Translations under genes and position numbers: made by a program | Notes under the pieces: generated by a model | What the model was told of the DNA's origin: nothing | Database searches by the model: none | Seen by the model: only the letters and a program-made list of their open reading frames with translations | Origin: a virus | Length of the DNA: 64,000 nt | Direction: 5' to 3' (one strand) | Virus record (IMG/VR): IMGVR_UViG_3300030387_000070 | In this document: positions 2,668 through 63,994 of the stretch, in pieces | How positions within the stretch are numbered: position 1 is the first letter of the stretch | Layout of the letters: the number at the start of each line of letters is the position of its first letter

Positions 2668-3534
2668 ATGAAAAACCTGTATTGCTATGATAATGAAATC
2701 ATAAAATGGACTTTACGCGACAATCTATATTGTTTGCATATTCAGCACGATGATATTGCGGACAATAATCCTCGTTGGTGGGACGAACATGATTCTGTAA
2801 TGGCCTGTTTTCATTCTCGGTATCGTCTTGGTGATAAGATTGATGCGAGTACGGCAGAAGAGTTTTGGAACAATCTTGTTTACGAGTATTGCTCTGATGA
2901 AGAAATTCTGGATGCACTTTTTAACATGAAGTTGGAAGATACCTGTGTCGTTGTTGATGAGAATTACAGTGACGAAAAACGATATACTATTTGTGGTATC
3001 GGAACTCTTTTTGATAAAAAGGTCTCTAATAATCCAATGTATGTTGGATTAAAGTATAACGAAATTGCTACATATGTTGCTGGTGAATTTTCTATTCGAG
3101 ATTGTCAGATTCTTCTTGATAAGCATATTGCATGGCTTCCTCTTTGGCTGCACGATCACTCTGGTTTATCTATGGATTGTGATACACGGTTCAGAGGTTC
3201 GTTGGATGACAGTAATGTTGGTTGGATTGTGATCGCTATTACGGATGGTTCGGATAATACCAAAAACGAAGCAGAACGAATCATGCGTAACGAGGTAAAG
3301 ACTTACAGCGATTATCTTTCTGGTGAAAACTATGGCTATACGCTTTATAAAGAAGAGCATGGAGAGTGGAAAGAAATTGACAGAGCATTCGGATTTATCG
3401 GTTCCGATGTATTTGAAAACGGTATCACATACAGCGTTGGCTGTGGCCTTGAAACAGCATTAAAGGAAGATCGGTGCCGTATCGGTGATGCAGAGAAGGT
3501 TGTGACCGTCACTTATAACTTTGATAAATGTTGA
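2668..3534 (+). CDS. conserved phage protein, function unknown
   Basis: Track ORF 2629-3534 trimmed to ATG 2668 (GGGAG upstream). Motifs LWLHDHSGLSM and VKTYSDYLSGENYGYTLY..FGFIGSD recall a widespread phage/ICE family whose name I cannot give. Confidence 0.6.
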   Translation: MKNLYCYDNEIIKWTLRDNLYCLHIQHDDIADNNPRWWDEHDSVMACFHSRYRLGDKIDASTAEEFWNNLVYEYCSDEEILDALFNMKLEDTCVVVDENYSDEKRYTICGIGTLFDKKVSNNPMYVGLKYNEIATYVAGEFSIRDCQILLDKHIAWLPLWLHDHSGLSMDCDTRFRGSLDDSNVGWIVIAITDGSDNTKNEAERIMRNEVKTYSDYLSGENYGYTLYKEEHGEWKEIDRAFGFIGSDVFENGITYSVGCGLETALKEDRCRIGDAEKVVTVTYNFDKC

Positions 3535-16670: not shown

Positions 16671-18884
16671 ATGAGAACGCTTTTGCTGTTCCGTGGAGCA
16701 CCAGGTTGTGGGAAGTCCACCTATATTAAAGAGCATAATCTTGAGCAGTATGTATTGAATGCTGATACACTTCGACTTATGTGCCAGAGCGCACAGGAAA
16801 CACCTGCCGGGCGGATGGAGATCTCTCCGCAGAATGATGATGTTGTATGGGAGATGCTTTTCAAACTGCTTGAGGTGCGTATGAGTCATGGCGAGTTTAC
16901 CGTGATTGATGCAACGAATTCCAAGACGGTCGAAATGAATCGTTATAAGAATCTTGCAAAACAGTATCGTTATCGGATGTATGTTATTGACATGACGGAC
17001 CTTCCGATTGAGGAATGCAAACGAAGAAACGCTCAGAGAGAATGGCTGAATCGAGTTCCTGAAGCGGCCATTGATAAGATGTACGCTCGGTTTGCTACTC
17101 AAAAAGTTCCTTCTGGTGTGACAGTTCTTCCTTCTACTACGGATGTGATGTCCGATTTGAACTACTGTCCGAATGACTTCAACCAGTGGAAGAAGATCCA
17201 TATCATCGGTGATGTTCATGGCTGTTATACTTGTTTAAGTGAATACCTTGGTGAGATGAAGGACGACGAACTGTATATCTTCGTTGGTGATTATCTCGAT
17301 CGTGGCATCGAAAACGTTGAGGTATTCAAGTTCTTGTGTGATGTTGTAAATAACAACCGCAAGAATGTGATCCTTTTGGAGGGCAATCATGAGTGTTGGC
17401 TAAACAAGTGGGGGCATGATGAACCGGTTCAGAGTGAAGAGTTTGCAAACTACACTCGTCCGCAGCTCTTTAAAGCCGGTATTGACAAGAACACTGCTCG
17501 TAAGATCTATTCCAGAGTAGGCCAATGTGCCTACTTTGAGTATGATGGGAAGCGGTATTTCGTGAGCCACGGTGGTTTGAGTTATCTGCCTTATTTTCTT
17601 CCTTTCGTATCTGCTGATCAGATGATTAAAGGTGTAGGTCGCTATCCTGATATGCTAACCGTGGCTGAGTCTTGGGAAAAATCGATGCCGGATAGCTACA
17701 TTCAGATCTTCGGCCATCGAAATGTGCAGGATGTTCCTATTGATATGGGGCATCGGTGCTACAATCTCGAAGGAAAAATCGAGTTTGGTGGATATCTCCG
17801 TTGCGTTGAACTTGAACACGGTCAGTCAATCAAATGTGTAGAAACCAAGAACGATGTGTTCCGAAAAGAGGAGCCAAAGACTGAAACTGCCGTTGAAATG
17901 AAAACTGAGTTCGATAACGCAGAACTTGTTAGTAAGATGCGTCAAAGCAAATATGTGTTTGAGAAGCGATTCGGAGATATTTCTTCTTTCAACTTCTCTC
18001 GTGAAGCATTTTATAAGAAGCACTGGGATGAGGTTTCTACCAAAGCAAGGGGATTGTTCATTAACACAAAGACGAATAAGATTGTAGCTCGAAGCTATGA
18101 TAAGTTCTTTGCGGTTGATGAGCGGAATGAAACGAGAATTGGAAACCTACAGAACACTTTGAAGTTCCCAGTGACTGCATATCTAAAAGAGAACGGATTT
18201 CTTGGTATCATTTCGTATGATGCAGAACAGGATGGTCTGTTCATTGCAAGTAAATCCACTCCTGAAGGGCCTTTTGCAGATATGTTCCGAAAGATTATTA
18301 TGGATACTACTTCCGATGAAGATCGTAAGAATCTGAAGGAGGTTGCCAAGGAGCATGGCTCCATCATCTTTGAGGTTATTGATCCTGTGAATGATGCTCA
18401 TATCATAGAATACAAGAAACCGCACATTGTTTTGCTGGATGTTGTTGCAAACGATATGAATTTCAGTGTGATAGATTATGATGACTTGAAACGTGTCGCA
18501 GAAAAGTGTCATCTGCAGATTAAGGAGAAGGTTAAAACCTTTGAGAACTGGAGTGAATTCTATCCTTGGTATGAGGAAGTCATGAATGAGAACTATCTGT
18601 ACCATGACATCGAGCATGTTGAAGGCTTTGTTCTGAGAGATAGTAACAACTTTATGTTCAAGTTAAAGCTTCCTTATTATAAGCATTGGAAGTTCCTGCG
18701 TGGTGTTATGAAGAGCGTCCAGAAACGTGGCTATTACGAAAACACCGCCAAGCTGTTTACGGCTGAAGATAATTTGTTCTATGGTTGGATGCGTGAGCAA
18801 CGAGAGAAAGATCAAGAGGCGTTCAGCAAGAAGGGAATCATTCAGCTGCGAAATGAGTTCTATGCAAGTCAGCAGAAGAGTTGA
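16671..18884 (+). CDS. polynucleotide kinase-phosphatase fused to an RNA-ligase-type nucleotidyltransferase (Pnkp-like RNA repair enzyme)
   Basis: P-loop FRGAPGCGKSTY. Calcineurin-type phosphoesterase boxes IHIIGDVHGC, GDYLDRG, EGNHE and SHGG. C-terminal module with ARGLFINT..YDKFFAVDE and LKENGFLG (a Kx[DN]G-type motif I). The three-domain order matches bacterial Pnkp. Confidence 0.75.
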   Translation: MRTLLLFRGAPGCGKSTYIKEHNLEQYVLNADTLRLMCQSAQETPAGRMEISPQNDDVVWEMLFKLLEVRMSHGEFTVIDATNSKTVEMNRYKNLAKQYRYRMYVIDMTDLPIEECKRRNAQREWLNRVPEAAIDKMYARFATQKVPSGVTVLPSTTDVMSDLNYCPNDFNQWKKIHIIGDVHGCYTCLSEYLGEMKDDELYIFVGDYLDRGIENVEVFKFLCDVVNNNRKNVILLEGNHECWLNKWGHDEPVQSEEFANYTRPQLFKAGIDKNTARKIYSRVGQCAYFEYDGKRYFVSHGGLSYLPYFLPFVSADQMIKGVGRYPDMLTVAESWEKSMPDSYIQIFGHRNVQDVPIDMGHRCYNLEGKIEFGGYLRCVELEHGQSIKCVETKNDVFRKEEPKTETAVEMKTEFDNAELVSKMRQSKYVFEKRFGDISSFNFSREAFYKKHWDEVSTKARGLFINTKTNKIVARSYDKFFAVDERNETRIGNLQNTLKFPVTAYLKENGFLGIISYDAEQDGLFIASKSTPEGPFADMFRKIIMDTTSDEDRKNLKEVAKEHGSIIFEVIDPVNDAHIIEYKKPHIVLLDVVANDMNFSVIDYDDLKRVAEKCHLQIKEKVKTFENWSEFYPWYEEVMNENYLYHDIEHVEGFVLRDSNNFMFKLKLPYYKHWKFLRGVMKSVQKRGYYENTAKLFTAEDNLFYGWMREQREKDQEAFSKKGIIQLRNEFYASQQKS

Positions 18885-19001: not shown

Positions 19002-19083
19002 GCCAAGGTGCTGCAAATGGGAGACAGGGCGAGCCCAAACCTCGCTGTGGAAACACATGCGGTTTCGAATACCGTCCTTGGCA
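19002..19083 (+). tRNA. tRNA-Leu(CAA), type II, CCA encoded
   Basis: Hand fold:
- acceptor GCCAAGG/CCTTGGC
- 3-bp D stem
- anticodon stem GCGAG/CTCGC with loop CCCAAAC
- extra arm TGTG-GAAA-CACA
- T arm GCGGT-TTCGAAT-ACCGT
- then A and CCA
Position 33 is C, which is unusual. Confidence 0.65.
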
Positions 19084-19114
19084 CCAGATAATTTTATGAA
19101 GAAAGGATGATTGC

Positions 19115-19798
19115 ATGGTTAATAGGGCAGAAGATCATATTGGTGATGTCTTTGATTTGTTTGAGGTGATTGATGTTATTCGAGATGAAAATAATATTCC
19201 ATCTTACAAATGTCGATGTAAAGAATGTGGATGGACAGGGCTAAAAAATATAGCTCAGGCGAGAGCGGTTAAAGTGTGTCGGCATAAACAATCGAGTGGC
19301 GATTATAGAAATTTTTCTACACGGTGGAAAAACAAAAGAATCGGACGAATCTTTCATGGAATGAAAGCAAGATGCTATGATGTTGATGATAAAAACTATA
19401 TAACGTATGGCATGAAAGGAATTTGTGTTTATCAAGAATGGTTGGATAATCCAAAGTCATTTGAAGAGTGGTCGTTGAAAAATGGATACAAAGATAGTTT
19501 GACAATCGATAGAATTGATTCGACAAAAGATTACTGTCCTGATAATTGCAGATGGATATCATTGGAAGATAATTCAAAATATAAATCCACAACTCGAATG
19601 TTAGAAGTAGATGGTGAAATACATACGGGACGTGATTGGGCGGCAGAATTAGGGCTTGGAACAAACACGATAAATAAATATGTAAGAAGATACGGAGAAG
19701 ATAATACAAAACAATTTATAAGAAGAGTATTAAAGGACCCGGATAAAGTGAATTCTCGACAAGGGAAACAAACTATCTATAATCTTTACATGAACTAA
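19115..19798 (+). CDS. HNH-type homing-endonuclease-like protein
   Basis: LTIDRIDSTKDYCPDNCRWISLEDNS is the HNH_3-like core. N-terminal CxxC zinc motif (CRCKECG). C-terminal HTH-like WAAELGLGTNTINKYVRRYG. Sits between two tRNA genes. Confidence 0.65.
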   Translation: MVNRAEDHIGDVFDLFEVIDVIRDENNIPSYKCRCKECGWTGLKNIAQARAVKVCRHKQSSGDYRNFSTRWKNKRIGRIFHGMKARCYDVDDKNYITYGMKGICVYQEWLDNPKSFEEWSLKNGYKDSLTIDRIDSTKDYCPDNCRWISLEDNSKYKSTTRMLEVDGEIHTGRDWAAELGLGTNTINKYVRRYGEDNTKQFIRRVLKDPDKVNSRQGKQTIYNLYMN

Positions 19799-19805
19799 AT
19801 TGAAA

Positions 19806-19845
19806 TGGCCCAGTGTAAAAACTGAGTACATTGGGCCAAATATTT
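19806..19845 (+). terminator. hairpin terminator after the HNH gene
   Basis: 12-bp stem TGGCCCAGTGTA / TACATTGGGCCA (one G-U pair) with a 9-nt loop, followed by an A/T-rich tail. Confidence 0.5.
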
Positions 19846-19851
19846 ATATGA

Positions 19852-19935
19852 GCACCCGTGGTGAAATTGGCAACCACGATGGACTTAAAATCCATTCCCG
19901 GTAACGGGTTGCGAGTCCGAGTCTCGCCGGGTGCA
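19852..19935 (+). tRNA. tRNA-Leu(UAA), type II
   Basis: Hand fold:
- acceptor GCACCCG/CGGGTGC
- anticodon stem ATGGA/TCCAT with loop CTTAAAA
- extra arm CCCG-GTAA-CGGG
- T arm GCGAG-TCCGAGT-CTCGC (non-canonical T loop)
No encoded CCA. Confidence 0.65.
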
Positions 19936-19940
19936 TATTT

Positions 19941-20013
19941 CTGGGCGTAGCGAAGTTGGCATCGCACCTGTTTTGGGAACAGGGGACCGCAAGTTCAAAT
20001 CTTGTCGCTCAGA
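19941..20013 (+). tRNA. tRNA-Pro(UGG), CCA encoded
   Basis: Hand fold:
- acceptor CTGGGCG/CGCTCAG
- D arm GCGA..TCGC
- anticodon stem CCTGT/ACAGG with loop TTTGGGA
- T arm GCAAG-TTCAAAT-CTTGT
- then A and CCA. Confidence 0.75.
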
Positions 20014-20019
20014 CCACTA

Positions 20020-20106
20020 CGAGGATTCGCCAAGTTGGTAAGGCAGCGGAATTTGACTCCGCCAGCGCTGAACAAGCGGTCACAGGTTCGAGTCCTGTAT
20101 CCTCGG
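20020..20106 (+). tRNA. tRNA-Gln(UUG)-like with a 19-nt extra arm
   Basis: Hand fold:
- acceptor CGAGGAT/ATCCTCG
- D arm TCGCCAAGTTGGTAAGGCA
- anticodon stem GCGGA/TCCGC with loop ATTTGAC
- variable region CAGCGCTGAACAAGCGGTC (CGCT/AGCG hairpin)
- T arm ACAGG-TTCGAGT-CCTGT
- discriminator G. Confidence 0.55.
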
Positions 20107-20113
20107 CTTATAT

Positions 20114-20195
20114 GCGGGTATGGTGTAACTGGCAGCCACGTCAGATTTAGGATCTGATGCCGAAAGGCGTGAGGGATCGTGCCCCTCTACCCGTA
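20114..20195 (+). tRNA. tRNA-Leu(UAG), type II, CCA encoded
   Basis: Hand fold:
- acceptor GCGGGTA/TACCCGT (G1-U72)
- anticodon stem TCAGA/TCTGA with loop TTTAGGA
- extra arm GCC-GAAA-GGC
- T arm GAGGG-ATCGTGC-CCCTC (atypical loop)
- then A and CCA. Confidence 0.55.
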
Positions 20196-20297
20196 CCACG
20201 GTCATAGAATGGTTGCGTACCGTTTGTTGATCTCCTTTACTATTATTCCCGGCTCGCCAGTGATGGTGCAGTAGTGCTTTGTAAGCTGGGTTTTCAT

Positions 20298-20369
20298 GCA
20301 GCGGTCGTACAACGGCTAGTACATCAGCCTTCCAAGCTGAGGATGAGGTTTCGACTACCTTTCGCTGCT
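20298..20369 (+). tRNA. tRNA-Gly(UCC), CCA encoded
   Basis: Hand fold:
- acceptor GCAGCGG/TCGCTGC
- D arm GTAC..GTAC
- anticodon stem TCAGC/GCTGA with loop CTTCCAA
- T arm GAGGT-TTCGACT-ACCTT
- then T and CCA. Confidence 0.75.
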
Positions 20370-20560
20370 CCAATCTTGTATGGGTAGGATCTTTAGCGGT
20401 CAGATCCAGCCGCGCCTGTGCAAGATACCACCCCGAAAGGGGCGAGATATAGGAAATGTGCATCGCTGTTATTCCTTCCTCGTCTATATGATATAGATGC
20501 AATAGTGTTTTATAAGGAAGGTCCCCAGTTGAATAGTTGCAGCTGTTTGACTGGTAATAT

Positions 20561-20634
20561 GGGATAGTAGCTCAGTTGGTCAGAGCTGGCGGCTCATAAC
20601 CGCTTGGTCGCGAGTTCAAATCTTGCCTGTCCCA
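20561..20634 (+). tRNA. tRNA-Met/Ile2(CAU)
   Basis: Hand fold:
- acceptor GGGATAG/CTGTCCC
- D arm GCTC-AGTTGGTCA-GAGC
- anticodon stem GGCGG/CCGCT with loop CTCATAA
- T arm GCGAG-TTCAAAT-CTTGC. Confidence 0.75.
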
Positions 20635-20742
20635 CTAACCCGATAGGGTGAATACATAGAATTTGCTAGAAATTTTGTTTTATGGGCGAATAAATAATAT
20701 GACGTTGATACGTCTATTATTTTTCGCTAATTTTTAAAGTTT

Positions 20743-20763: not shown

Positions 20764-20780
20764 GAAAAGGAGGTGGTTTG

Positions 20781-21503
20781 GTGAAACATTATGGAAGTAT
20801 TTGCGAGATTGATGGTTCTAAGATTGAGCCTGTCTCGTGTATCACTGGTGGTTCACCTTGTTAGCCAAGACCTTTCTATTGCCGGCAAGCGGGCAGGTTT
20901 GGCTGGAGAACGGTCTGGTCTATTTATGGAAATGATTCGTGTGATAAAGGAGATGAGGGAGGCCACCAATGGAGAGTATCCAAAATTTGCAATCTGGGAA
21001 AACGTCCCAGGAGCCTTCTCTTCCAACAAAGGAGAAGACTTTAGATGTGTCTTGGAAGAATTTGCACGCATTGTCGAACCAAGTGTTTCAGTTCCTCGAC
21101 CTTCGGGAAGAGAATGTAAGTGGGCAAAAGCTGGAGCAATCGCCGGAAACGGATGGTCCTTGGCGTGGAGATTATTCGACGCTAGTGGTTGGGGTGTTCC
21201 CCAGCGTAGAAAACGTCTCGCGCTTGTCATGGACCTTAGAGGACAATGTGCCGGAAAAGTATTATTTGAGCAAACGGGCGTGTCAGGGGATCTTGATAAG
21301 AGCGTCAAGACGTGGAAAACCATTGCCCGACCTTCTGAAGGATGCACTGCAGGAGATGATTCATTGGTGGGAGATGAAAGATCCTACACTTTGAAGATTC
21401 GTTCTGGCTGCGCAGGGGGGGTAAAGGAGCACTCGTGCAGAATGAATTGAGTGCGACTCTCTCCACTTTGCAAGATCAGACTTTGTTCTGTGTAAAGCAT
21501 TAA
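20781..21503 (+). pseudogene. C5-cytosine DNA methyltransferase, catalytic part (motifs IV-VIII), frame-disrupted
   Basis: - GTG 20781 follows AAGGAGG by 7 nt and gives ..IEPVSCITGGSPC, then TAG at 20862.
- One frame over: QDLSIAGKRAGLAGERSGLF, WENVPGAFSS, GVPQRRKRLALV.
- Further homologous-looking pieces lie in the two other frames: ..LEDNVPEKYYLSKRACQGIL.. and GGKGALVQNELSATLSTLQDQTLF.
- At least 3 frame changes are needed to read all of this. Confidence 0.7.
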
Positions 21504-21515
21504 GGAGGGAACGGA

Positions 21516-22262
21516 TTGGAAAAAGAAACCAGTTTACATAATTTAAAACAAAATATTTCCACAGCGGTATTTGAAAGCCATAGTCAGGATGCTCGATACA
21601 CTCAGCAAGGTAATACAAGCCCAGCTTGTACAGCTCAATGGGGTACTGGTGGTAATAATATGCCGCTTGTCGCTGAAAAGAAAGCCTTTGCTATGCAGCG
21701 TATTGGCGAATATAAGGAAAGCGAACAGGCCAGCACAATGAAATCTCGTGATTATAAAGATGCAACTGATCTTGTAGTTGAAGAGAAAGAGGTGAAATGT
21801 GCTGGGTTTCCACTTGGATTTAGAGCAGAAAATACGAAATGCTACGATGAAGTGGCTACTACGCTTTGCAATGGTACGCGGCCTGGATTTACTACTGGAT
21901 GTGTTCTCAATTGGATTGTTCGCCGCTTGACTCCTGTTGAGTGTGAACGGTTACAGGGTTTTCCTGATGGATGGACCGATATTGGCGAGTGGGTTGACGA
22001 AAATGGTAAAAAGCACAAGCCAGCCGATTCTCCTCGGTACAAGGCGCTCGGCAATTCGATTGCTTTGCCTCAGTGGTATTGGATTTGCCAGAAGATGAAA
22101 CCGTATATTGGTGAAAATCCTACGCTTGGCAGTCTTTTCGATGGAATCGGTGGCTTTCCGCTTGTCTTTGAAAGTACGTATGGTGATGGTACTGCTATCT
22201 GGGGATCTGAAATTGAATCGTTTTGTGTTGCGGTGACAAAGAAGCATTTTCCAGAAGACTAA
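21516..22262 (+). CDS. C5-cytosine DNA methyltransferase, target-recognition and motif IX-X part with a C-terminally appended motif I-II
   Basis: TTG start 7 nt after AAGGAGG. Contains WGTGGNNMPLV, VRRLTPVECERLQGFPDGWT and RYKALGNSIALP. It then continues into LGSLFDGIGGFPLVFE..IWGSEIESFCVAVTKKHFPED*, which is the FxGxGG AdoMet motif normally found at the N-terminus. Confidence 0.75.
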   Translation: MEKETSLHNLKQNISTAVFESHSQDARYTQQGNTSPACTAQWGTGGNNMPLVAEKKAFAMQRIGEYKESEQASTMKSRDYKDATDLVVEEKEVKCAGFPLGFRAENTKCYDEVATTLCNGTRPGFTTGCVLNWIVRRLTPVECERLQGFPDGWTDIGEWVDENGKKHKPADSPRYKALGNSIALPQWYWICQKMKPYIGENPTLGSLFDGIGGFPLVFESTYGDGTAIWGSEIESFCVAVTKKHFPED

Positions 22263-33323: not shown

Positions 33324-36300
33324 ATGCCAAGTAGTCTACACACACACTCGAATTACAGTCTACTAGATGGGTACTCTTCTCCTGAAGAAAATCTAAAAAG
33401 AGCATCAGAACTTGGTTTGAAAGCCATTGCCATTACGGAACATGGTGAGGTAACAAGCTGGCCGTACTATTCTGAACTAAAAGGCAAGTATCCGAATGTC
33501 AAACTTCTTTATGGTATCGAGGCATACGAGTGCGAAGATAGGGAAGTCAAGGACAAGAATAGTAAATATTGGCATTTAATCATTATTGCCAAGAACGAAG
33601 CTGGTCGTCAGGCAGTCAATCGCTTATCTACACTCGGTCATCTTCATGGCTTTTACAGCCGTCCTCGTATCACAAAAGAGGATATCGCTAAGGAAGATAC
33701 GAATAATTTGATTATCCTGTCTGCTTGTTTGGCGAGTAGGCTGTCAAGAACGGATGATTATGACACTTGTGTCAAGCTGGTTCAAGAGTATAAGAGCTTA
33801 TTCCCTCACTATTATCTTGAGGTTCAGGCTCATGCAAACAGTGAACAAGCAAAATATAATCAGAAAATCATGCGGTTGGCAAACGATACTCATACAAAAG
33901 TAGTCGTCACAAACGATGTTCATGCTGCTACCAAAGAGGATCTTTATTATCAAGATTATTTCCTTCGTATCGCTCATGATACGGAAACCGCCACAGAAAT
34001 CTATGAAGGGTGCTACTTCATGTCTCGTGATGAGCAGCATAGAGCCCTTGATAATCAGATTGGATACGATGCGGCAGAATGGTGTATCAATAATACTGAC
34101 GAGGTTGCTGATCTGTGTGATGATGTGGATATGCCTTGGCATGAACCGGAACTTCCCAAAATTGAGATTCCGCCACAGTATTCTAATTCGGCAGCTTATC
34201 TGAAAGACCTTGTAAAAGAGGGATGTAAGAAACGTAGCATTGATAAGTTTGATGTAGAAAAGCAGAAAATCTATCGAAAACGTGTTGATGATGAGCTGTT
34301 TGTCATTGAGAAGAAAGACTTCTGTGACTACTTTTTGATTCTGGTTGATTACATCAACTGGTGTAAGAAAAATGATGTCATTGTTGGCCCTGGTCGTGGT
34401 TCTGCTGCTGGTTCTCTTGTATGTTACCTGATTGGCATTACGCAGCTTGATTCCATCAAGTATGAACTTGACTTCGGACGATTCCTTACCATTGAGCGAA
34501 AAGACCTTCCTGACGTTGATGTTGATGTCAGTGACCGTGCCAAGGTTGTCGAGTATCTGACACAGAAGTATGGAGAAGATCGAGTAGTTCAGGTTATGAA
34601 CATCGTGTACACTACTCCGGTTACTTCAATTCAAGATGTTGGTAAGGTGCTCGGTTTCCCGTATGCCGAGATAAGAAAAATCAGTGAGAAGTTCGTTCAA
34701 AAGACATGGAAAGATTGCCTTGAAGCCAACACAGAAGTAGCTGAGAATCCAAAATATAAGGAACTACTTGATATTGCAAGTCATATCAATGGTCGCCCAC
34801 GAGGATATGGTATCCATGCTGGCGGTGTTATTGTTTGCCGACATCCTTATTACGAGTATATCGGTATCCGGCATGGTACTGACGGAGAGCACGTTATTTC
34901 CGTTGATAAGGTGATGGACGAGAAGATTGGACTTGTTAAGTTTGATATTCTTGGTGTTGCGTCGCTGGTTGCCATTGATGAAGCGAAGCGTGAGGATAAT
35001 ATTCCAGACTGGGAAATTGATATCAACAATCCTGAATTTGAAAACGACAAGGCAACTTACGATTTGATTTGCTCCGGTAAGACAGACAATCTATTCCAGA
35101 TTGAATCGTCCGGCATGAAAGATCTGGTTGCGCAGCTTCAACCTAGGTCGATTGAAGAACTATCCGCTTTGATTGCTCTTTATCGCCCTGATGCAATGCC
35201 GTCCATTCCTACATACGTTGACTGCAAGTATCATCCCGAACACATTCATTATTTCCATCCTGATATGGAACCAATTTTCCGCAGTACCTATGGCGTGAAC
35301 ATCTATCAGGAACAGAGTATGAAGCTCACAAAGGTCTTTGGTGGCCGAAGCGATGCTGGTGCTGATAGAATGCGTAAGTGCTTGGCAAAGAAAAAACCTG
35401 AGAAGGTCAAGGAAGAGGTAGAACTTCTTCACGATGAAATTCTTGCAAATGGATACGATAAAGCAACCGCTGAGTATATTTGTAACGAGTTGTCAACGAA
35501 GGGCGGCTATGGTTTCAATAAGTGTATTTCTGGCAACACGAAGTTGTGGAGAATGAGAAGTGGTCGGTTTGAGCCTACTGTTGCAGAAATGTACAAGATT
35601 CGCAATGATAGGAAGTTTGCTATCTTGACAAATCACACACATCTTAGGGACAAATATAGACGATACGGTTACGGTAGTGCGTTGTCAATGTGTGATGATG
35701 GACGCATTCGGATGAATAAAATTATTGATATCAAGTATTCTGGATATCGAATGCTGTATCGTGTAACAACTGAGACCGGTGCGACCATTGAATGTACAGA
35801 TAATCATAAATTCCCGACAACTGATGGCATTAAGTTGCTTTCTGATATGAGAATTGGTGATGAGTTATATGAGATTGGTGCTTATGAGGTTTGCAGAAAC
35901 AAGTATAATCTGACGGATGGAAATTTCGAAAGCAATTTGCCGAAGCCGGGACAAATGGGGTTCCAGACGAAGGAATTTAGTGCGAATCGTCTGTTTGAAG
36001 AGACGAAAGAAAAGAATAGACTGAAAAGAAGCCCATGTGAAATTTGCGGTAGAGAATATTCCGAAGATGCTCGTTTTGAAGTACACCACAAAGATTTTGA
36101 CCATACGCATAATGTACCTGATAACTATACTTGGTGCTGTGCATCGTGTCACAAGAAACTTCATTACGCTCACGGGCGAGTAAAACAGTATGAAAAGGGC
36201 ATCCCGTCAAAGACCGCTAAGATTATTTCTATTGAGGAAATTGGTTTTGATGATGTCTATGATGTGACAATGGATGCTCCGAATCACAATTTTGTAGTGT

Positions 36301-37340
36301 CAACTGGTATTGTAACTTGCAACTCTCATTCACAAGCCTATGCTGACATCTGTCTCCAGACTGCATATTTGAAAGCCCACCATCCGCTTGCATTCTTTAA
36401 GGCTATGCTGAACCTGAATAAAGCAAAGGTCGGCAAGGTCAACAAGATTATGGTGGATGCACGCAGCTTTGATATTCAGATTCTTCCGCCGAGTATCAAT
36501 CGTTCCGGCATGGACTTTACTGTGTCAAATGGTAAAATCCTGTTTGGCTTATCTGCTATCGGTGGTATTGGCGATACGCTTGCTGAAACTATCATTGCAG
36601 AACGAGATAGAAATGGAAAATTTAAGGGACTTGATGATTTCACGAGTCGTGTTCGTGCAACGAAGGCGCAGATTATTGCATTGGTTAAATCCGGTGCGAT
36701 TCCTACAAAGAACAAACGAATATTCTTGGAAAAGTACATTACCAGCGGTCTGGAACAATCTGAGTTTAAGCCAGTCAGTACACTTCCTACCAAGGCAGTT
36801 TTGCTGAGTAAGTGGGGTATTGATACAGAGCATTATAAGGTTGGTAAAAAGGTTGACAAAGAAACCGTCTTACGGATCTATAATGAAAAGCGCCGTGTCG
36901 TACATGAAACCGAGAAGCTGAAAAAGAAAGAAGCGTATATGGACGAGCAGACCACAAAATATCTACAAGATGAAGAACTTTGGGAGTTCCAGACTTTGCA
37001 GACCTTTATCAGTGACCCGAATCCTTTCGAGAAGGCATTTACTTATATCAAGGATTTCTCTGAAATCGAAGAAGGTGATTCTTGTGTACTGGTTGGTATT
37101 ATCGCAAAGATTCAGAAGAAGAAAACGAAGACTGGTATGCAGTTTGCATTTGTAAATCTGTATTCTGGCGATGGTATTATTGAGCTGACCGTATGGCCGA
37201 GAGTCTTGTCGGATTATCAGGATTTGATTGTAAAGGGAAGTCAGGTGGCTGTGCTTGGAAAGAAGGAAGATGAATCGCACGTTATTGCAAGCAACTTCAA
37301 ACCTTACAAGCAGTGGTTGCATGATAGAGAGATAGCGTAA
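33324..37340 (+). CDS. dnaE: DNA polymerase III alpha subunit (DnaE-type) interrupted by an intein
   Basis: PHP N-terminus (LHTHSNYSLLDG, ITEHG). GPGRGSAAGSLVCYLIGIT, ERKDLPDVDVDV, HAGGV. GYGFNK|C...N|SHSQAYA..AYLKAHHP. Confidence 0.9.
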   Translation: MPSSLHTHSNYSLLDGYSSPEENLKRASELGLKAIAITEHGEVTSWPYYSELKGKYPNVKLLYGIEAYECEDREVKDKNSKYWHLIIIAKNEAGRQAVNRLSTLGHLHGFYSRPRITKEDIAKEDTNNLIILSACLASRLSRTDDYDTCVKLVQEYKSLFPHYYLEVQAHANSEQAKYNQKIMRLANDTHTKVVVTNDVHAATKEDLYYQDYFLRIAHDTETATEIYEGCYFMSRDEQHRALDNQIGYDAAEWCINNTDEVADLCDDVDMPWHEPELPKIEIPPQYSNSAAYLKDLVKEGCKKRSIDKFDVEKQKIYRKRVDDELFVIEKKDFCDYFLILVDYINWCKKNDVIVGPGRGSAAGSLVCYLIGITQLDSIKYELDFGRFLTIERKDLPDVDVDVSDRAKVVEYLTQKYGEDRVVQVMNIVYTTPVTSIQDVGKVLGFPYAEIRKISEKFVQKTWKDCLEANTEVAENPKYKELLDIASHINGRPRGYGIHAGGVIVCRHPYYEYIGIRHGTDGEHVISVDKVMDEKIGLVKFDILGVASLVAIDEAKREDNIPDWEIDINNPEFENDKATYDLICSGKTDNLFQIESSGMKDLVAQLQPRSIEELSALIALYRPDAMPSIPTYVDCKYHPEHIHYFHPDMEPIFRSTYGVNIYQEQSMKLTKVFGGRSDAGADRMRKCLAKKKPEKVKEEVELLHDEILANGYDKATAEYICNELSTKGGYGFNKCISGNTKLWRMRSGRFEPTVAEMYKIRNDRKFAILTNHTHLRDKYRRYGYGSALSMCDDGRIRMNKIIDIKYSGYRMLYRVTTETGATIECTDNHKFPTTDGIKLLSDMRIGDELYEIGAYEVCRNKYNLTDGNFESNLPKPGQMGFQTKEFSANRLFEETKEKNRLKRSPCEICGREYSEDARFEVHHKDFDHTHNVPDNYTWCCASCHKKLHYAHGRVKQYEKGIPSKTAKIISIEEIGFDDVYDVTMDAPNHNFVVSTGIVTCNSHSQAYADICLQTAYLKAHHPLAFFKAMLNLNKAKVGKVNKIMVDARSFDIQILPPSINRSGMDFTVSNGKILFGLSAIGGIGDTLAETIIAERDRNGKFKGLDDFTSRVRATKAQIIALVKSGAIPTKNKRIFLEKYITSGLEQSEFKPVSTLPTKAVLLSKWGIDTEHYKVGKKVDKETVLRIYNEKRRVVHETEKLKKKEAYMDEQTTKYLQDEELWEFQTLQTFISDPNPFEKAFTYIKDFSEIEEGDSCVLVGIIAKIQKKKTKTGMQFAFVNLYSGDGIIELTVWPRVLSDYQDLIVKGSQVAVLGKKEDESHVIASNFKPYKQWLHDREIA
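35523..36323 (+). mobile_element. intein (267 aa) with HNH endonuclease domain inside DnaE
   Basis: Inserted in the conserved GYGFNK-SHS box. Begins CISGNTKLW, has block B IECTDNHKF, an HNH core CEICG..FEVHHKDFDHTHNVPDNYTWCCASCHKKLH, and ends NHNFVVSTGIVTCN followed by Ser. Confidence 0.85.
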
Positions 37341-59982: not shown

Positions 59983-60810
59983 ATGATTATTGATTGCAAA
60001 TCTATTGCACAAGATATCAAAGATAAAATCAAGAATATTATCGCAGAGGCCGATTACACTCCTGTTTTACATATTTATCAAGTAGGGGATAATCCTGCGT
60101 CTAATGCTTATATTAGAGGTAAATTGCGTGACTGTGAAGAGGTGGGGATCGAAGTAGAACTTATTAAACTGCCAGAAAATATTACTGAAGATGAATTGAA
60201 TAACAAGATCTTAGAAGATTATAATTGGGAATATGTGAACGGTATCATTGTTCAGCTTCCGTTGCCAAAACATATCAATCCTAAAAATATCTACATTCCA
60301 GACGCAGTTGATGTTGATGGATTTAATTCTACATCCAAATTTCAGCCTTGCACTCCGCTGGGCGTTATGAAGATTTTTGACTCCATCGGTTACGATCTGG
60401 ATGGCAAGAATGTGCTTGTGTGTGGTCAATCTGATATCGTAGGTCGTCCGTTGGTCAATATGCTGATTAAGCGGCACTGTAATGTAATCTCTGTGAATAG
60501 TACGGGTTCCGCCATGAAAGCCACTGCCATCGGATTTGGAATAGTCAATGTTATTATTTCCGCCGTTGGTAAGCGTGACTTTATTTCGACGTTTGATTTA
60601 TTTGATACGGATGTTTGCATCGACGTTGGTATCAACTATGACGAGAACGGAAAGCAGCACGGCGATTGTACTGATGCTGTTTATGATATGAAGGATGTCA
60701 AAGTAACACCTCGTATCGGCGGAGTTGGCCTTATGACTCGCGCTATGCTCTTATATAATGTATGTGTGGCGAAATACGGGGCAGAGAAGATGGAAGAGGT
60801 GATTGAATGA
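59983..60810 (+). CDS. folD: bifunctional methylenetetrahydrofolate dehydrogenase / methenyl-THF cyclohydrolase
   Basis: VGDNPASNAYIRGKLRDCEEVGI, GIIVQLPLPKHI, DVDGF, PCTPLGVMKIF, GQSDIVGRPL and TPRIGGVGLMTRAML. Confidence 0.85.
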   Translation: MIIDCKSIAQDIKDKIKNIIAEADYTPVLHIYQVGDNPASNAYIRGKLRDCEEVGIEVELIKLPENITEDELNNKILEDYNWEYVNGIIVQLPLPKHINPKNIYIPDAVDVDGFNSTSKFQPCTPLGVMKIFDSIGYDLDGKNVLVCGQSDIVGRPLVNMLIKRHCNVISVNSTGSAMKATAIGFGIVNVIISAVGKRDFISTFDLFDTDVCIDVGINYDENGKQHGDCTDAVYDMKDVKVTPRIGGVGLMTRAMLLYNVCVAKYGAEKMEEVIE

Positions 60811-61037
60811 AAGAACAGAAAATTCCGCTTGAACAGCAACTTATATATAACGTAGAAGAAGTAGCAACCCTCTTGAAAACTACACGCCCTGTGGTATACT
60901 CTTTAATAGAAAAGGGTTATCTTCCGAGCATTGTTCTTGGCAGACGGAAAGTGACGAGGAAGGCACTACTTACATTTCTTGATAAGAACGAGAACACTAA
61001 TTTTAGCCAAATCTTGAAATCAAAACAACTATCGTAA
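60807..61037 (+). CDS. excisionase-family HTH DNA-binding protein
   Basis: YNVEEVATLLKTTRPVVYSLIEKGYLPSIVLGRRKV..KALLTFL fits the HTH_17/Xis-type pattern. It is the last phage ORF before the junction. Confidence 0.6.
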   Translation: MKEQKIPLEQQLIYNVEEVATLLKTTRPVVYSLIEKGYLPSIVLGRRKVTRKALLTFLDKNENTNFSQILKSKQLS

Positions 61038-61049
61038 GCCATTTGGTCG

Positions 61050-61098
61050 TGCCCACAAAATTGCCCACATTTTATTTTCTGTGGGCAAACCGTGGGCA
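61050..61098. repeat. att-like cluster of four 7-8 bp recombinase-site-like repeats
   Basis: TGCCCACA at 61050-61057 and 61062-61069. The inverted copies TGTGGGCA at 61080-61087 and GTGGGCA at 61092-61098. Confidence 0.6.
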
Positions 61099-61149
61099 AA
61101 TCGACAATTTGTTTCCAAAGAATGACGTACACACGTCAAAACTTTATAG

Positions 61150-61224
61150 ATGGCAAAGGACGAAGCCCGTCACGGCCGTGGCTTCGAGGGCCTGCTGAAG
61201 CGCTACTTCAACACCGAAGTCTGA
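61150..61224 (+). pseudogene. 3'-terminal remnant of a rubrerythrin-family gene
   Basis: Encodes MAKDEARHGRGFEGLLKRYFNTEV*, which matches the remembered C-terminus (..ARDEARHGKAFEGLLKRYF) of rubredoxin/rubrerythrin-type peroxidases. An in-frame TAG lies immediately upstream (61147-61149). GC content rises sharply here. Confidence 0.5.
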
Positions 61225-61249
61225 TAAGGGTTCCCCGGTTATCTATGCT

Positions 61250-61288
61250 GCCCGCTGCAAGGACATTCCGCCTTGCAGCGGGCTTTTT
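61250..61288 (+). terminator. rho-independent terminator
   Basis: GCCCGCTGCAAGG-ACATTCC-GCCTTGCAGCGGGC followed by TTTTT. Confidence 0.8.
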
Positions 61289-61380
61289 GTGTTTCAATCG
61301 TGGTGACGACTTCTTTCGTAAAAATGGAATCCTAAAGATGCGCAAAGCGAACGCGGTGCGCATTTAAAATCGTCCCGCTA

Positions 61381-61421
61381 AAAGAGGCAGCTGCGCAGAA
61401 TTTCGCACAGCTGCCTCTTTT
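61381..61421. terminator. bidirectional hairpin terminator (serves copA on the - strand)
   Basis: AAAGAGGCAGCTGCGC-AGAATTTC-GCACAGCTGCCTCTTTT, with A/T runs on both sides. Confidence 0.75.
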
Positions 61422-61435
61422 GTGGTGGCTGAACC

Positions 61436-63994
61436 TTACTGGATGCCGGTAACAGGATAATCCTGTGCTTCCACGGCCTTCTTCAGCACCTCATCGTCCA
61501 CTTCGGCGTTCAGGGTAACGATGGCGGTACCGGCTTCGTGGCTGACAACAGCCTCGTCCACCTGCGGCAGAGCCTCCAAAGCCTTCTTGACGCGGGCTTC
61601 ACAGTGATGGCACATCATACCTTCTACGGTCAGGGTCTTTTTCATAGCAATCTTCTCCTTGTAAGTTGTATCTTCCTCCGCTGCGGGCTGCACAAGGGCA
61701 GCGGGCAGGGCAGGGACGTGTTTGGGCGGGTGGTCATGTTTTGCGCTGTGCAGGTCAAACAGGTTCAGCCGCAAGGCGTTGCTCACCACGCAGAAGCTGG
61801 AAAGGCTCATGGCAGCTGCGCCGAACATGGGGTTCAGCGTCAGTCCCAATGGAATGAACACACCGGCTGCCAGCGGGATGCCGATGATGTTATAGATGAA
61901 CGCCCAGAACAGGTTTTCGTGGATGTTGCGCAGGGCAGCACGGCTCAGCCGGATGGCGGCGGGCACGTCCGACAGCTTGGAGTTCATCAGTACCACGTCT
62001 GCAGCGTCAATGGCTACGTCTGTGCCTGCGCCAATGGCAATGCCGGTGTCAGCGCGGGTCAGGGCAGGAGCATCGTTGATGCCGTCGCCCACCATAGCTA
62101 CCTTGCCGTACTTTTGCAGCTGCCGGATGACGGCCTCCTTGCCCTCGGGCAGCACTCCCGCGATCACCTCGTCCACCCCGGCCTGTCGGCCAATGGCCTC
62201 GGCAGTGCGCTGGTTGTCGCCGGTCAGCATCACGACCCGGATACCCATATTTCGCAGCTCCCGGATGGCCTGCGGGCTGTCCTCCTTGATGGTATCTGCC
62301 ACTGCGATAACGCCCAGCAAACGACCTGCGCCACCAAAGAACAGGGGCGTCTTACCCTGTGCAGCCAGCGCGGCGGCTTCGGCTTGCAGCGCAGCGGGGA
62401 TGGCGACCTTTGCGCCGATAAAGGCCGCATTGCCGCCAAAGATCTCCTTGCCTTCCAGCGTGGCGGTAAGGCCGTTGCCCGGCAGGGCGGTAAAATCGGT
62501 AACAGAGGGCAGCTCCAGCTGCTTTTCCTCCGCATAGGCCAGCACTGCCCGCGCCAACGGGTGCTCGCTGCGGCCCTCCAGCGCGGCGGCCAGCGTGAGC
62601 AGCTCGGTCTCAGTCACGCCCGCAGCGGGCAGAAGGTCGGTGACGGTAGGTTCGCCGCAGGTGATTGTGCCGGTCTTGTCCAGCGCTACGATGCGGGTGC
62701 GTCCGGCTTCTTCCAGCGCCGCAGCGGTCTTGAACAGGATGCCGTTCTTCGCACCAAGGCCGTTGCCCACCATAATAGCCACCGGCGTTGCCAGACCCAG
62801 CGCACAGGGGCAGCTGATGACCAGCACCGAGATGCCCCGCGCCAGCGCGTAGCCCACATCCCGCCCCAGCAGCAGCCAGACAAGGGTGGTGACCACCGCA
62901 ATGCTGATGACCGCAGGCACGAAAAAGCCGGATACGGTATCTGCGATCTTTGCAATGGGGGCTTTGGTGGCGGCGGCATCGCTGACCATGCGGATGATCT
63001 GCGCCAGCGTGGTGTCCTCGCCTACGCGGGTAGCGCGGCACTGCAAATAGCCGGACTGGTTGGTGGTGGCGGCGCTTACCTTATCGCCCACGGCCTTGTC
63101 CACCGGGATGCTTTCGCCGGTCAGGGCGCTCTCGTTCACGGCGCTGCTGCCCTCCAGCACAATGCCGTCCACCGGGATGTTCTCGCCCGGACGCACCACA
63201 AAGATGTCCTCTTTCTGCACCTGCTCAATGGGCACGGTCACCTCGGCACCGTCCCGCAGCAGGGTGGCGGTTTTGGGGGCTAGCTTCATCAGGCTTTTGA
63301 GCGCATCGGTGGTCTTGCCCTTGGAGCGTGCCTCCAGCATTTTGCCCACCGTGATGAGGGTCAAAATCATGGCGGCAGACTCAAAATAGAACTCCATCAT
63401 GTAGTGCATGACTAGTTCCTCGTTGCCGTGTAGCTGCGCATCGGTCATGGCAAACAGGGCGTAGGTGCTCCATACAAAGCTTGCCATCGAGCCCATAGCC
63501 ACCAGCGTATCCATGTTGGGGGAGCGGTGCACCAGCCCCTTGAAGCCGTTGATGAAAAATTTCTGGTTGATCACCATCACGATGCCCGCCAGCAGCAGCT
63601 GTACCAGCCCCATGGCAATGTGGTTGCCGTCAAACCAGCGGGGCAGCGGCCAGCCCCACATCATGTGCCCCATGGAAAAGTACATCAGCACCAGCAAAAA
63701 GCCCAGCGAGGCGATAAGCCGCCGCTTTAGCTTGGGTGTTTCGTGGTCGGCCAGTGCGTCCAGCTCTGCGCTGGTACTGGCAGCGGCAGCAGCGGTCTTT
63801 TTAGGGCTTGCACCGTAACCGGCCTGCTCTACGGCACGGATAATGGCGGAATCTTCTGCTGTGCCCTCCACCCCCATGGAGTTTGTCAGCAGGCTTACCG
63901 AACAGCCGGTAACGCCCGGCACGCTCTTTACGGCCTTTTCTACCCGGGCAGAGCAGGCCGCGCAGCTCATGCCGGTAACGTTGAATTGTTCCAT
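61436..63994 (-). CDS. copA: copper-translocating P-type ATPase
   Basis: 852 aa. N-terminal [21 protein letters not shown] motif [30 protein letters not shown], and a C-terminal second [19 protein letters not shown]-rich. Confidence 0.95.

Follow-up and report, generated by a model that had tools for sequence, protein, structure and literature searches.

A conserved TAG-plus-one-base insert in the catalytic motif of putative phage C5 cytosine methyltransferase genes: a probable programmed forward recoding site

Shifty-stop recoding with a stimulator 5′ of the site is an already known class of mechanism, and several described systems bear comparison with the element considered here, an insert of TAG plus one base inside the catalytic Pro-Cys-Gln (PCQ) motif of a putative C5 cytosine DNA methyltransferase gene in IMG/VR virus record IMGVR_UViG_3300030387_000070 (64,000 nucleotides (nt), one strand, 5′ to 3′; hereafter the window, meaning this whole stretch). 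In prfB, with the site CUU-UGA-C, a short N-terminal open reading frame (ORF) of 25 codons, compared with 27 in the window, ends at a stop codon with a weak fourth base, an upstream duplex stimulates the forward shift and the remaining protein lies in the +1 frame (PMC6321510). The antizyme site UCC-UGA-U, yeast OAZ1 (GCG-UGA-C) and Ty3 (GCG-AGU-U) resemble the window in having no P-site pairing in the new frame and need a slow A-site codon or stop together with 5′ and/or 3′ stimulators (PMC5009743, PMC12661321). T4 gene 60 is likewise a phage gene in which UAG directly follows the take-off codon (as in the TGT-TAG of all 133 loci described below), a 5′ mRNA structure promotes forward sliding and untranslated bases interrupt the coding sequence (PMC5462505, PMC6551183). 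Finally, in engineered refolding hairpins (Cho 2013; Hu 2016; Huang 2018) a stable helix has its 3′ arm abutting the shift site; such helices stimulate +1 and attenuate −1 frameshifting on both 70S and 80S ribosomes, and a hairpin re-forming by the E site stimulates a +1 shift at CUU-UGA on 70S ribosomes only when release factor RF2 is absent or limiting (PMC6321510). The insert in the window most likely makes ribosomes skip forward, which would be a previously undescribed way of controlling such an enzyme, and we put the probability that it is a programmed forward ribosomal recoding site, working by a +1 shift or by a 4-nt hop, at roughly 0.7.

Positions 20,856–20,868 of the window are CCTTGTTAGCCAA, read as CCT TGT TAG C CAA, in which TGT occupies 20,859–20,861, TAG 20,862–20,864, the extra C 20,865 and CAA 20,866–20,868; the candidate recoding site, TGT-TAG-C, comprises the Cys codon, the stop and the one extra base (20,859–20,865, plus strand). 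Upstream lies an extended Shine-Dalgarno (SD) sequence, AAAGGAGGTGG (20,766–20,777, plus strand), of a GGRGGTGRT type found in nearly all insert-bearing permuted genes (those in which motifs I–II follow motif X, see below), and the GTG start of the leader (20,781–20,783) is located 7 nt downstream of its GGAGG (20,769–20,773). From this GTG a leader ORF of 27 codons, VKHYGSICEIDGSKIEPVSCITGGSPC (20,781–20,861, plus strand), a length shared by almost all permuted insert-bearing genes, encodes motif III and motif IV as far as the catalytic Pro-Cys and ends ...GGSPC before the TAG stop. The body of the enzyme follows in the +1 frame (20,866–21,421, plus strand), reading from CAA at 20,866 as QDLSIAGKRAGL...ENVPGAF...QRRKR and thereby supplying QDLS (the rest of motif IV), ENV (motif VI) and QRRKR (motif VIII), up to ...SGCAGG; this frame has no convincing start codon of its own. 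An initial annotation, made from the window's sequence, had already described a surplus of four nucleotides in the PCQ motif, placed as TTAG at 20,861–20,864, which is equivalent to TAG-C, and a GTG/SD start giving 27 codons before a stop with the rest in the +1 frame and lacking a good start; direct reading of the sequence agrees on each of these points. It had also proposed that removal of the four nucleotides restores motif IV, and the leader and +1 body so joined do indeed match the C5 cytosine methylase profile PF00145 (E = 1.7e-23, profile positions 46–131 plus a second stretch), PCQ being contiguous only if these 4 nt are left out. Elsewhere the window consists of long uninterrupted ORFs, all on the plus strand, so that general indel noise does not explain the insert.

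The site recurs far more often than chance would allow. Exact matches to the 23-mer across the insert, GGTTCACCTTGTTAGCCAAGACC, were found in 33 IMG/VR contigs, most of them from the window's own family of ~130-kb phages and 85–97% identical across the gene with their target-recognition regions swapped; five of the 33 carry much more divergent enzymes. A degenerate scan, with the pattern P-C-TAG-N-Q-D-L-S-[IV]-A-G and fully degenerate flanks, was used to remove ascertainment bias and located the site in at least 119 contigs, which together with the earlier loci amount to at least 133 loci bearing the unit TGT-TAG-N-CAR. The insert is also present in nine metagenome-assembled genomes (MAGs) of gut Clostridia and in four GenBank human-gut virome records; the IMG contigs come from about 37 datasets, and ~50 independent datasets are represented overall. 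Conservation of the insert in orthologues had been named in the initial annotation as a result that would argue against simple decay, and this is what the divergent orthologues display. Among 136 insert-bearing genes, 32 run off their contig, 51 continue as a single full-length +1 ORF and 53 have a shorter one, the break falling right after a poly-G tract in 32 of these 53. The insert is the sole interruption in 51 of the 104 assessable genes, where a +1 ORF of 380–690 codons extends through motif X; it is the only interruption in 11 relatives from the window's own clade, and at locus L023 it is followed by a single +1 ORF of 488 codons.

Purifying selection acts on both sides of the insert. 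For 30 non-redundant genes, the ratio of non-synonymous to synonymous substitution rates (dN/dS) was 0.31 across leader codons 5–22, at dS 1.36, and 0.10 across the first 24 codons after the insert in the +1 frame, at dS 1.62; with ratios this low at saturated dS, it follows that both parts are kept as protein, in different frames. Selection of this kind in two frames, found here without a universal start codon in the +1 frame, is the pattern of a frameshift site. Readthrough past TAG in frame 0 ends after a variable 3–59 codons and gives no conserved product. The constraint is also apparent at the level of single nucleotides, since in all 133 loci the Cys codon is TGT (the scan pattern allowed TGC), the Pro codon is CCT or CCC, with CCA and CCG absent, TAG is followed by A (about 81 loci), C (about 49) or T (3) and never by G, and the Gln codon is CAA or CAG. 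CCY-TGT-TAG-H-CAR is thus invariant, as in a conserved shift site. Neither a version of the site with TAA or TGA nor an in-frame gene encoding P-C-[S/R]-Q-D-L-S came up in searches made for them, and every synonymous spelling occurs among intact homologues (80 loci retrieved by protein similarity). In 82 unique insert-bearing genes the synonymous variability at GGT GGT TCA CCT TGT was 0.08, 0.22, 0.18, 0.24 and 0.00, compared with 0.3–0.75 elsewhere and a return to 0.42–0.75 directly after the insert; the same five codons score 0.41–0.72 in 57 intact genes. At the other end of the leader, the start codon is GTG in 76 of the 82 insert-bearing genes as opposed to ATG in 52 of the 57 intact ones, and codon 3 is CAT in 79 of the 82.

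Pairing between the start region and the frozen block recurs in the minimum-energy folds predicted for diverse leaders. When the G of GUG is numbered as position 0, so that UGU occupies nt 78–80, the predicted pairs join nt −2 to +4 (A/G-G-GUG-AA) to nt 71–77 (UUCACCU) and nt 6–9 (CAUU) to nt 66–69 (GGUG), the 3′ arm being exactly the 12 nt that lie 5′ of the shift codon. In the window the 5′ arm (G-GUG-AA, one unpaired base, CAUU; 20,780–20,790, plus strand) contains the start codon, the 3′ arm (GGUG, an unpaired G, UUCACCU; 20,847–20,858, plus strand) corresponds to the codons Gly-Gly-Ser-Pro and ends directly before the shift codon, and 10 of 11 pairs can form. This complementarity of the leader's 5′ and 3′ ends had escaped the initial annotation. 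A mean of 9.75 of the 11 pairs is retained in 68 unique insert-bearing genes (63 with at least eight) versus 4.1 in 62 intact genes, and in 27 non-redundant sequences 93.9% of cells pair in register versus 34–54% when the arms are slid; support for the helix thus comes from its conservation and from the contrast between insert-bearing and intact genes, and not from covariation. The helix explains both the GTG start and the CAT third codon. In a lineage with normal motif order (L151, L171, L192, L219, L232 and L237), 112–193 codons precede the site and the start codon is distant; there, a local hairpin GGGGCU...AGCCCC (−18 to −33 kcal/mol) is predicted with its 3′ arm ending at the same base. 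L232 retains the hairpin with a different inner stem, and the intact relatives lack it. Two unrelated architectures, the leader helix and the local hairpin, thus converge on a helix abutting CCY-UGU-UAG, and the predicted helix has the placement next to the shift codon and the specificity for insert-bearing genes that would be expected of a stimulator acting in cis.

Other structures were considered for the same bases. A small hairpin across the stop, CYUG-UUAGN-CARG, was rejected as the cause of the CCY constraint on the counter-example of L234 (CCC with CAA), and a local hairpin GGUG-GUU-CACC or an SD-like GGUGG was rejected as the stimulator as both are absent from the lineages with GGA GGC, GGC GGC, TTT GGT and TTC GGT AGC. 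The predicted long-range pairing with the start region would explain these bases better than a local hairpin or an internal SD. As a separate observation, the frozen block at 20,850–20,863, GGUU(C)ACCUUGUUA, resembles the 3′ tail of 16S rRNA, GGAUCACCUCCUUA; one bulged C aside, it is complementary to positions 1498–1510 of 16S rRNA, a universally conserved stretch and the target of primer 1492R. The likeness may be a coincidence.

A tree of the 175 conserved N-terminal residues shows genes with the insert interleaved with intact ones. The insert-bearing L039 and the intact L082 are near-identical downstream of the site and differ at nearly every synonymous position upstream of it; the SD, the GTG, the leader and TAG-N therefore recombine as one module onto different enzyme bodies, which accounts for the interleaving. 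When L039 is compared with L082 and L078, the recombination breakpoint falls exactly at the PCQ motif.

The natural arrangement leads us to propose forward recoding: the stop, UAG followed by A or C, is weak; with UGU in the P site, the 3′ arm of the helix would still lie inside the ribosome; and the 5′ arm would be free, 75 nt further back. This agrees with the principle shown by the engineered hairpins and recalls prfB and T4 gene 60. Ribosomes would initiate at GTG, translate the 27-codon leader as far as Pro-Cys and meet UAG in a weak termination context, with A or C as the next base. During slow release the start region, A/G-G-GUG-AA-N-CAUU, would re-pair with GGUG-G-UUCACCU as the latter emerges from the ribosome, and the helix re-forming behind the ribosome would bias the mRNA forward such that decoding in the +1 frame gives the full methyltransferase. 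That ribosomes shift, by how many bases and to what purpose, we infer. Two variants can be envisaged. A +1 shift without P-site re-pairing would need one event only; AGC would be read next in the window, giving ...GGSPC-S-QDLS..., and in most relatives Arg would be inserted (PC-R-Q). Alternatively, a 4-nt forward hop over UAGN would restore the canonical ...GGSPCQDLS..., possibly by a near-cognate Gln-tRNA reading UAG and re-pairing on CAR 4 nt ahead, a route that would explain why only TAG is used. The predicted tryptic peptides would differ, those of sites with C as the fourth base ending ...ITGGSPCSQDLSIAGK after a +1 shift and ...ITGGSPCQDLSIAGK after a 4-nt hop; at sites with A, a +1 shift would yield ...GGSPCR plus QDLSIAGK. 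The likely purpose would be to hold down the level of a C5-methyltransferase that may be toxic, or to tie its synthesis to RF1 activity and translation of the leader. A fuller version, which we regard as tentative and on balance doubtful, is that UAG-N is skipped whole by a 4-nt hop restoring PCQ, driven by a leader-closing helix with the start codon as one arm, so that an 81-nt switch would couple initiation, RF1 termination and recoding and travel as a recombining module.

The window departs from each of the described systems in several respects. In prfB, tRNA-Leu re-pairs from CUU to UUU, which tRNA-Cys cannot do at the window site; the duplex is SD:anti-SD with a 3-nt spacer, whereas in the window it would be mRNA-mRNA, between the start region and the 12 nt 5′ of the site; and the window stop is UAG, read by RF1, in a gene which is not a release factor, shows no obvious autoregulatory loop and has the site inside its catalytic motif. 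In common with prfB, the efficiency of the shift is expected to be inverse to the cognate release factor. The antizyme, OAZ1 and Ty3 sites are eukaryotic and regulated by polyamines or tRNA abundance, none of them lies within a DNA methyltransferase, and the window product would carry an extra residue in an invariant motif. Compared with T4 gene 60, the gap is 4 nt instead of 50, take-off and landing codons are unmatched (UGU versus AGA, AGC or AGU) unless a Gln-tRNA moves from UAG to CAR, and no dedicated nascent-peptide signal is known; a helix is rightly placed to act as a 5′ structure of the bypass type, a role we infer. The engineered hairpins are artificial or are viral −1 attenuators, while the window helix is natural and spans an 81-nt leader with the start codon as an arm. 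No programmed frameshift in a phage or bacterial C5-methyltransferase was found in the literature searched, which included the GeneTack survey and a recoding review from 2016. The features that appear to be new are the UGU-UAG-N site, its place in a catalytic motif, a stimulator helix with the start codon as part of it, the modular spread and, as discussed below, a natural Type B family.

Several points weigh against recoding as proposed here. All insert-bearing sequences are metagenomic or from MAGs, with no cultured phage carrying the insert, and the case for a shifted product is built from comparative sequence evidence in such DNA. Around half of the assessable genes, that of the window included, carry further frame breaks, mostly at poly-G tracts, and therefore many copies may be off. 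The helix has little covariation (double changes at only two pairs), the fold of the window's leader is not significantly better than that of shuffled sequences (z = −1.6) and a few lineages (GGA GGC, TTT GGT) break parts of it. With regard to decoding, tRNA-Cys cannot re-pair at +1, as UGU to GUU leaves the anticodon GCA without Watson-Crick pairs, and the site would therefore be of the no-re-pairing (antizyme/Ty3) type; at +4 it re-pairs only partly (AGC/AGU), and on AGA, the most frequent variant, scarcely at all. With a +1 shift, Ser or Arg would enter an otherwise invariant PCQ, and no in-frame PC[S/R]Q gene was found; a 4-nt hop has no close natural precedent, and a plain slow-stop model does not predict the exclusive use of TAG.

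These points have to be set against the alternatives. The initial annotation had left open an inactivating insertion, a recoding event and an assembly artefact, of which comparative evidence favours recoding, while recurrence in ~50 datasets excludes an artefact and the selection, site constraints and helix contradict simple inactivation or decay. We consider it unlikely that the insert marks an OFF allele or a long-lived pseudogene, a permanent or mutational ON/OFF state conserved by ancestry or by recombinational spread. The interleaving of insert-bearing and intact genes in the tree would fit, as would the family's use of hypermutable poly-G tracts that switch frames and the extra breaks in half of the assessable genes (the window copy has G7). 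However, dN/dS is 0.1–0.3 in both frames at saturated dS, 51 genes are otherwise intact, the synonymous constraint is confined to genes with the insert and a helix specific to it has evolved in two unrelated architectures; moreover, the nearest insert-bearing and intact pairs differ throughout the leader and not by a simple 4-nt indel, and the 4-nt unit is not a slippable repeat. Neither the relaxed selection nor the lineage-restricted lesion typical of a pseudogene was found for TAG-N. Termination followed by reinitiation in the +1 frame, for example at a GUG inside GGU-GGU, would produce a non-catalytic DNA-binding protein without the Cys, or else a two-piece enzyme complemented by the 27-residue leader. 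Most permuted genes do have G-GTG-GT in the +1 frame 13 nt upstream of the stop, and fragments of C5-methyltransferases complement one another at some split points, but an engineered split in motif VI did not complement (PMC5944983). As the lineages with GGA GGC, GGC GGT, TTT GGT and TTC GGT AGC have no +1-frame start codon near the stop, as no SD serves such a start and as the leader is under protein-level selection as motifs III–IV, we regard reinitiation as quite improbable.

Repair of the RNA, with UAGN cut from the mRNA and the ends religated to CCU-UGU-CAR, drew attention because a fused kinase-phosphatase-RNA ligase similar to T4 Pnkp/Rnl1 is encoded at 16,671–18,884, about 2 kb upstream, and because the site can form the hairpin CYUG-UUAGN-CARG with UAGN in its loop. 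Ligase and insert occur together in the window's 130-kb phage clade alone, the available DNA of other lineages having no such ligase; the gene adjoins a tRNA cluster, which is the usual context of tRNA repair, and the hairpin has its counter-example in L234 (CCC with CAA). Given also that no nuclease is known to excise UAGN with such specificity, this explanation is very unlikely, and linkage to an RNA ligase was rejected as a general feature of the insert because the two go together in no clade but that of the window. Gut phages are known to recode TAG as Gln, and if TAG were reassigned or suppressed, for example as Gln under code 15, straight readthrough of TGT-TAG would spell Cys-Gln and complete PCQ; that TAG is the sole stop used at the site would agree with this. 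The enzyme, however, lies in the +1 frame after TAG, and readthrough in frame 0 yields no conserved product, coming to an end after 3–59 codons. ORF length in the window grows by only about 6% when TAG is read as sense, and no suppressor tRNA with anticodon CUA is present in the window or in 45 related loci; code-15 reassignment was rejected on these two grounds, and any such readthrough is extremely improbable as an explanation by itself; at the most, suppression could open the hop variant as its initial step. The probability that the insert is a sequencing or assembly artefact of the window is negligible: nothing specific favours it beyond a homopolymer tract elsewhere in the gene, and the identical site recurs in ~50 independent datasets and in divergent genes. 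The initial annotation had judged homopolymer error a poor explanation for TTAG, and rightly, as the site is not a homopolymer; it had not seen that a true homopolymer lesion (G7) exists 550 nt downstream in the same gene.

The family profile and catalytic motifs mark the window gene as a putative C5 cytosine DNA methyltransferase. Beyond the match of the leader and +1 body, a second ORF of 248 aa (21,516–22,262, plus strand) matches PF00145 at profile positions 252–322 (E = 4.9e-10) and encodes the target-recognition region, motif IX (RRLTPVECERLQGFPDGW), motif X (ALGNSIALP) and, at its C-terminus, motifs I–II (LFDGIGGF...SEIE). Motifs IV (PCQ), VI (ENV), VIII (QRR), IX, X (GNS) and I (FxGxGG) were all found, in the order IV-VI-VIII-IX-X-I. 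The gene is circularly permuted, with motifs IV–X first and I–II at the C-terminus of the second ORF, a feature absent from the initial annotation. Two uncultured gut phages, MT836051 and MT836154, have the same order in one intact ORF (MKHLGDI...PCQ...ENV...QRRKR...GNS...LFDGxGGF...stop), L003 and L004 are single intact ORFs of this kind (MKHLGDI...GNS...LFDGxGGF...SEIE...stop) and the Faecalibacterium phages FP_Toutatis and Lelie are permuted too; the permutation is therefore native to the enzyme family. Among deposited phages, megablast searches with the gene and with 24 kb of the window gave no close relative. The new N-terminus lies between motifs II and III and motifs I–II follow motif X, as in the engineered Type B permutants of Slaska-Kiss et al., which were the most active of the C5-methyltransferase permutants tested and whose topology was not found in nature in a 2018 survey of REBASE (PMC5944983). 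The natural permutants known in 2018, of the M.BssHII type, have their permutation within the variable region (Type H), unlike the window family, and cp62M.MpeI is engineered; the window family would thus be a natural Type B permuted C5-methyltransferase, a topology earlier engineered and sought in REBASE without success.

The window copy has three interruptions, the TAG-C insert, a G7 tract and an in-frame TAA, the last two not having been noted in the initial annotation. The tract (21,415–21,421, plus strand) puts this copy out of frame: relatives with G8 read ...GCAGGGKGALVQ... across it (also given as ...SGCAGGGKGALVQ...), whereas G7 shifts reading back to the frame of the leader and the +1 ORF ends at 21,450. 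The continuation, (G)KGALVQNELSATLSTLQDQTLFCVKH (21,422–21,503, plus strand), lies in the leader's frame because of G7 and ends at TAA (21,501–21,503). Considered as a pseudogene lesion, G7 is shared by four contigs (the window, L006, L022 and L025), and close relatives have G8 (L007, L009 and L216) or G10 (L018 and L196), so that tract length differs between very close relatives. Family-wide, 31 of 36 genes without a long G-run are in frame, and G7/G8 tracts are in and out of frame about equally. Given this variability, the tract is separate from the insert and would be either a lesion of the hypermutable-tract kind or, possibly, a switch of phase. The poly-G tracts of these genes fall in Gly-rich motifs. 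Two cultured phages, FP_Toutatis and Lelie (L001 and L002), also differ at such a tract, around locus position 3360, and both are out of frame. The variation looks like phase variation of phage methyltransferases, or a recurrent sequencing problem. Tracts of poly-C/G in methyltransferase genes are classic switches (PMC3711429), and the G7–G10 tracts, in or out of frame at random between close relatives, resemble the homopolymers that switch phasevarion methyltransferases. This likeness does not extend to TAG-N, which is fixed and non-repetitive, and known phasevarions concern chromosomal Type I/III mod genes, not phage C5 enzymes.

The TAA at 21,501–21,503 is embedded in TAAGGAGGG-N6-TTG, which combines the stop, an SD and the start of the 248-aa ORF; the SD, AAGGAGGG, and the TTG start of this second-subunit ORF together occupy 21,502–21,518 (plus strand) and overlap the TAA. 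The arrangement is conserved in the window's subclade (L007 and L216) and falls in the variable region after motif VIII. An engineered Type B permutant split at that point in the variable region was active (PMC5944983), of which the TAA/SD/TTG split is the natural counterpart. With G8, the window-type enzyme would be a two-subunit one divided at this split; with G7 adding a second frame break, the window allele may be switched off unless slippage occurs on the G-run.

Further observations concern the same gene family. An ORF of 141 aa (20,969–21,394, plus strand), in the frame +1 to the enzyme and with its own GGGAGG-N6-ATG, overlaps motifs VI–VIII and is not part of the recoding site. It encodes ...YYLSxKACxGILxRAxxRGKxLP... 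and is conserved (45–78% identity) within annotated C5-methyltransferase genes of 132 very diverse phages, for example at L003, L001, L239 (Javan422) and L240 (Vibrio phage vB_VchM-138), being out of frame with the coding sequence in every case checked. It matched no Pfam or NCBIfam family and gave a weak match to phrog_16143 only; a nested gene is one possible reading, an alternative product of frameshifting another. Among the intact-PCQ genes of the window's 130-kb phage family, six (L053–L056, L086 and L087) appear to start at CTG, directly after ATGA, an out-of-frame ATG overlapping TGA, which would be a further non-ATG start in this family.

Elsewhere in the window, the protein encoded at 16,671–18,884 (737 aa) fuses a kinase (AAA_33), a metallophosphatase and an RNA ligase of the T4 Rnl1 type, a predicted RNA healing-and-sealing enzyme in one polypeptide, and lies directly upstream of a cluster of seven tRNAs (19,002–20,635). 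One of these, at 20,020–20,106, has the anticodon UUG (Gln), a length of 87–88 nt and a long variable arm like that of class-II tRNAs; in relatives, this place in the cluster is taken by a normal version of 71 nt. This tRNA and the cluster were considered as UAG suppressors and rejected; they are not suppressors, nor are they general to insert-bearing phages. A DnaE-type DNA polymerase III alpha subunit of 1338 aa (33,324–37,340) contains an intein splicing domain at residues 747–998. Towards the end of the window (59,983–63,994), GC content rises from about 40% to 55–67% after about 61,100; this region contains a FolD-like gene (59,983–60,810) and after it, on the minus strand, a heavy-metal P-type ATPase of the CopA type (61,436–63,994). 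The jump probably marks either an assembly junction or flanking host DNA next to an integrated phage, and the proximity of a 41%-GC phage to 62%-GC DNA is unusual.

If ribosomes are indeed carried forward at this site, hundreds of methyltransferase genes of gut phages and prophages that are now annotated as pseudogenes or as two unrelated ORFs would be expressed genes, and predictions of the anti-restriction capacity of phages and of barriers to host range in the gut would change accordingly. The site would add a case of forward recoding at a stop codon without tRNA re-pairing in bacteria and phage, and with it a long-range mRNA helix involving the start codon as stimulator, a principle for which engineered hairpins have so far been the only demonstration. 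That UAG alone is used suggests sensing of RF1 activity, a regulatory logic known only for RF2 through prfB, and a compact 100-nt cassette for low, tunable expression could serve synthetic biology in Bacillota.

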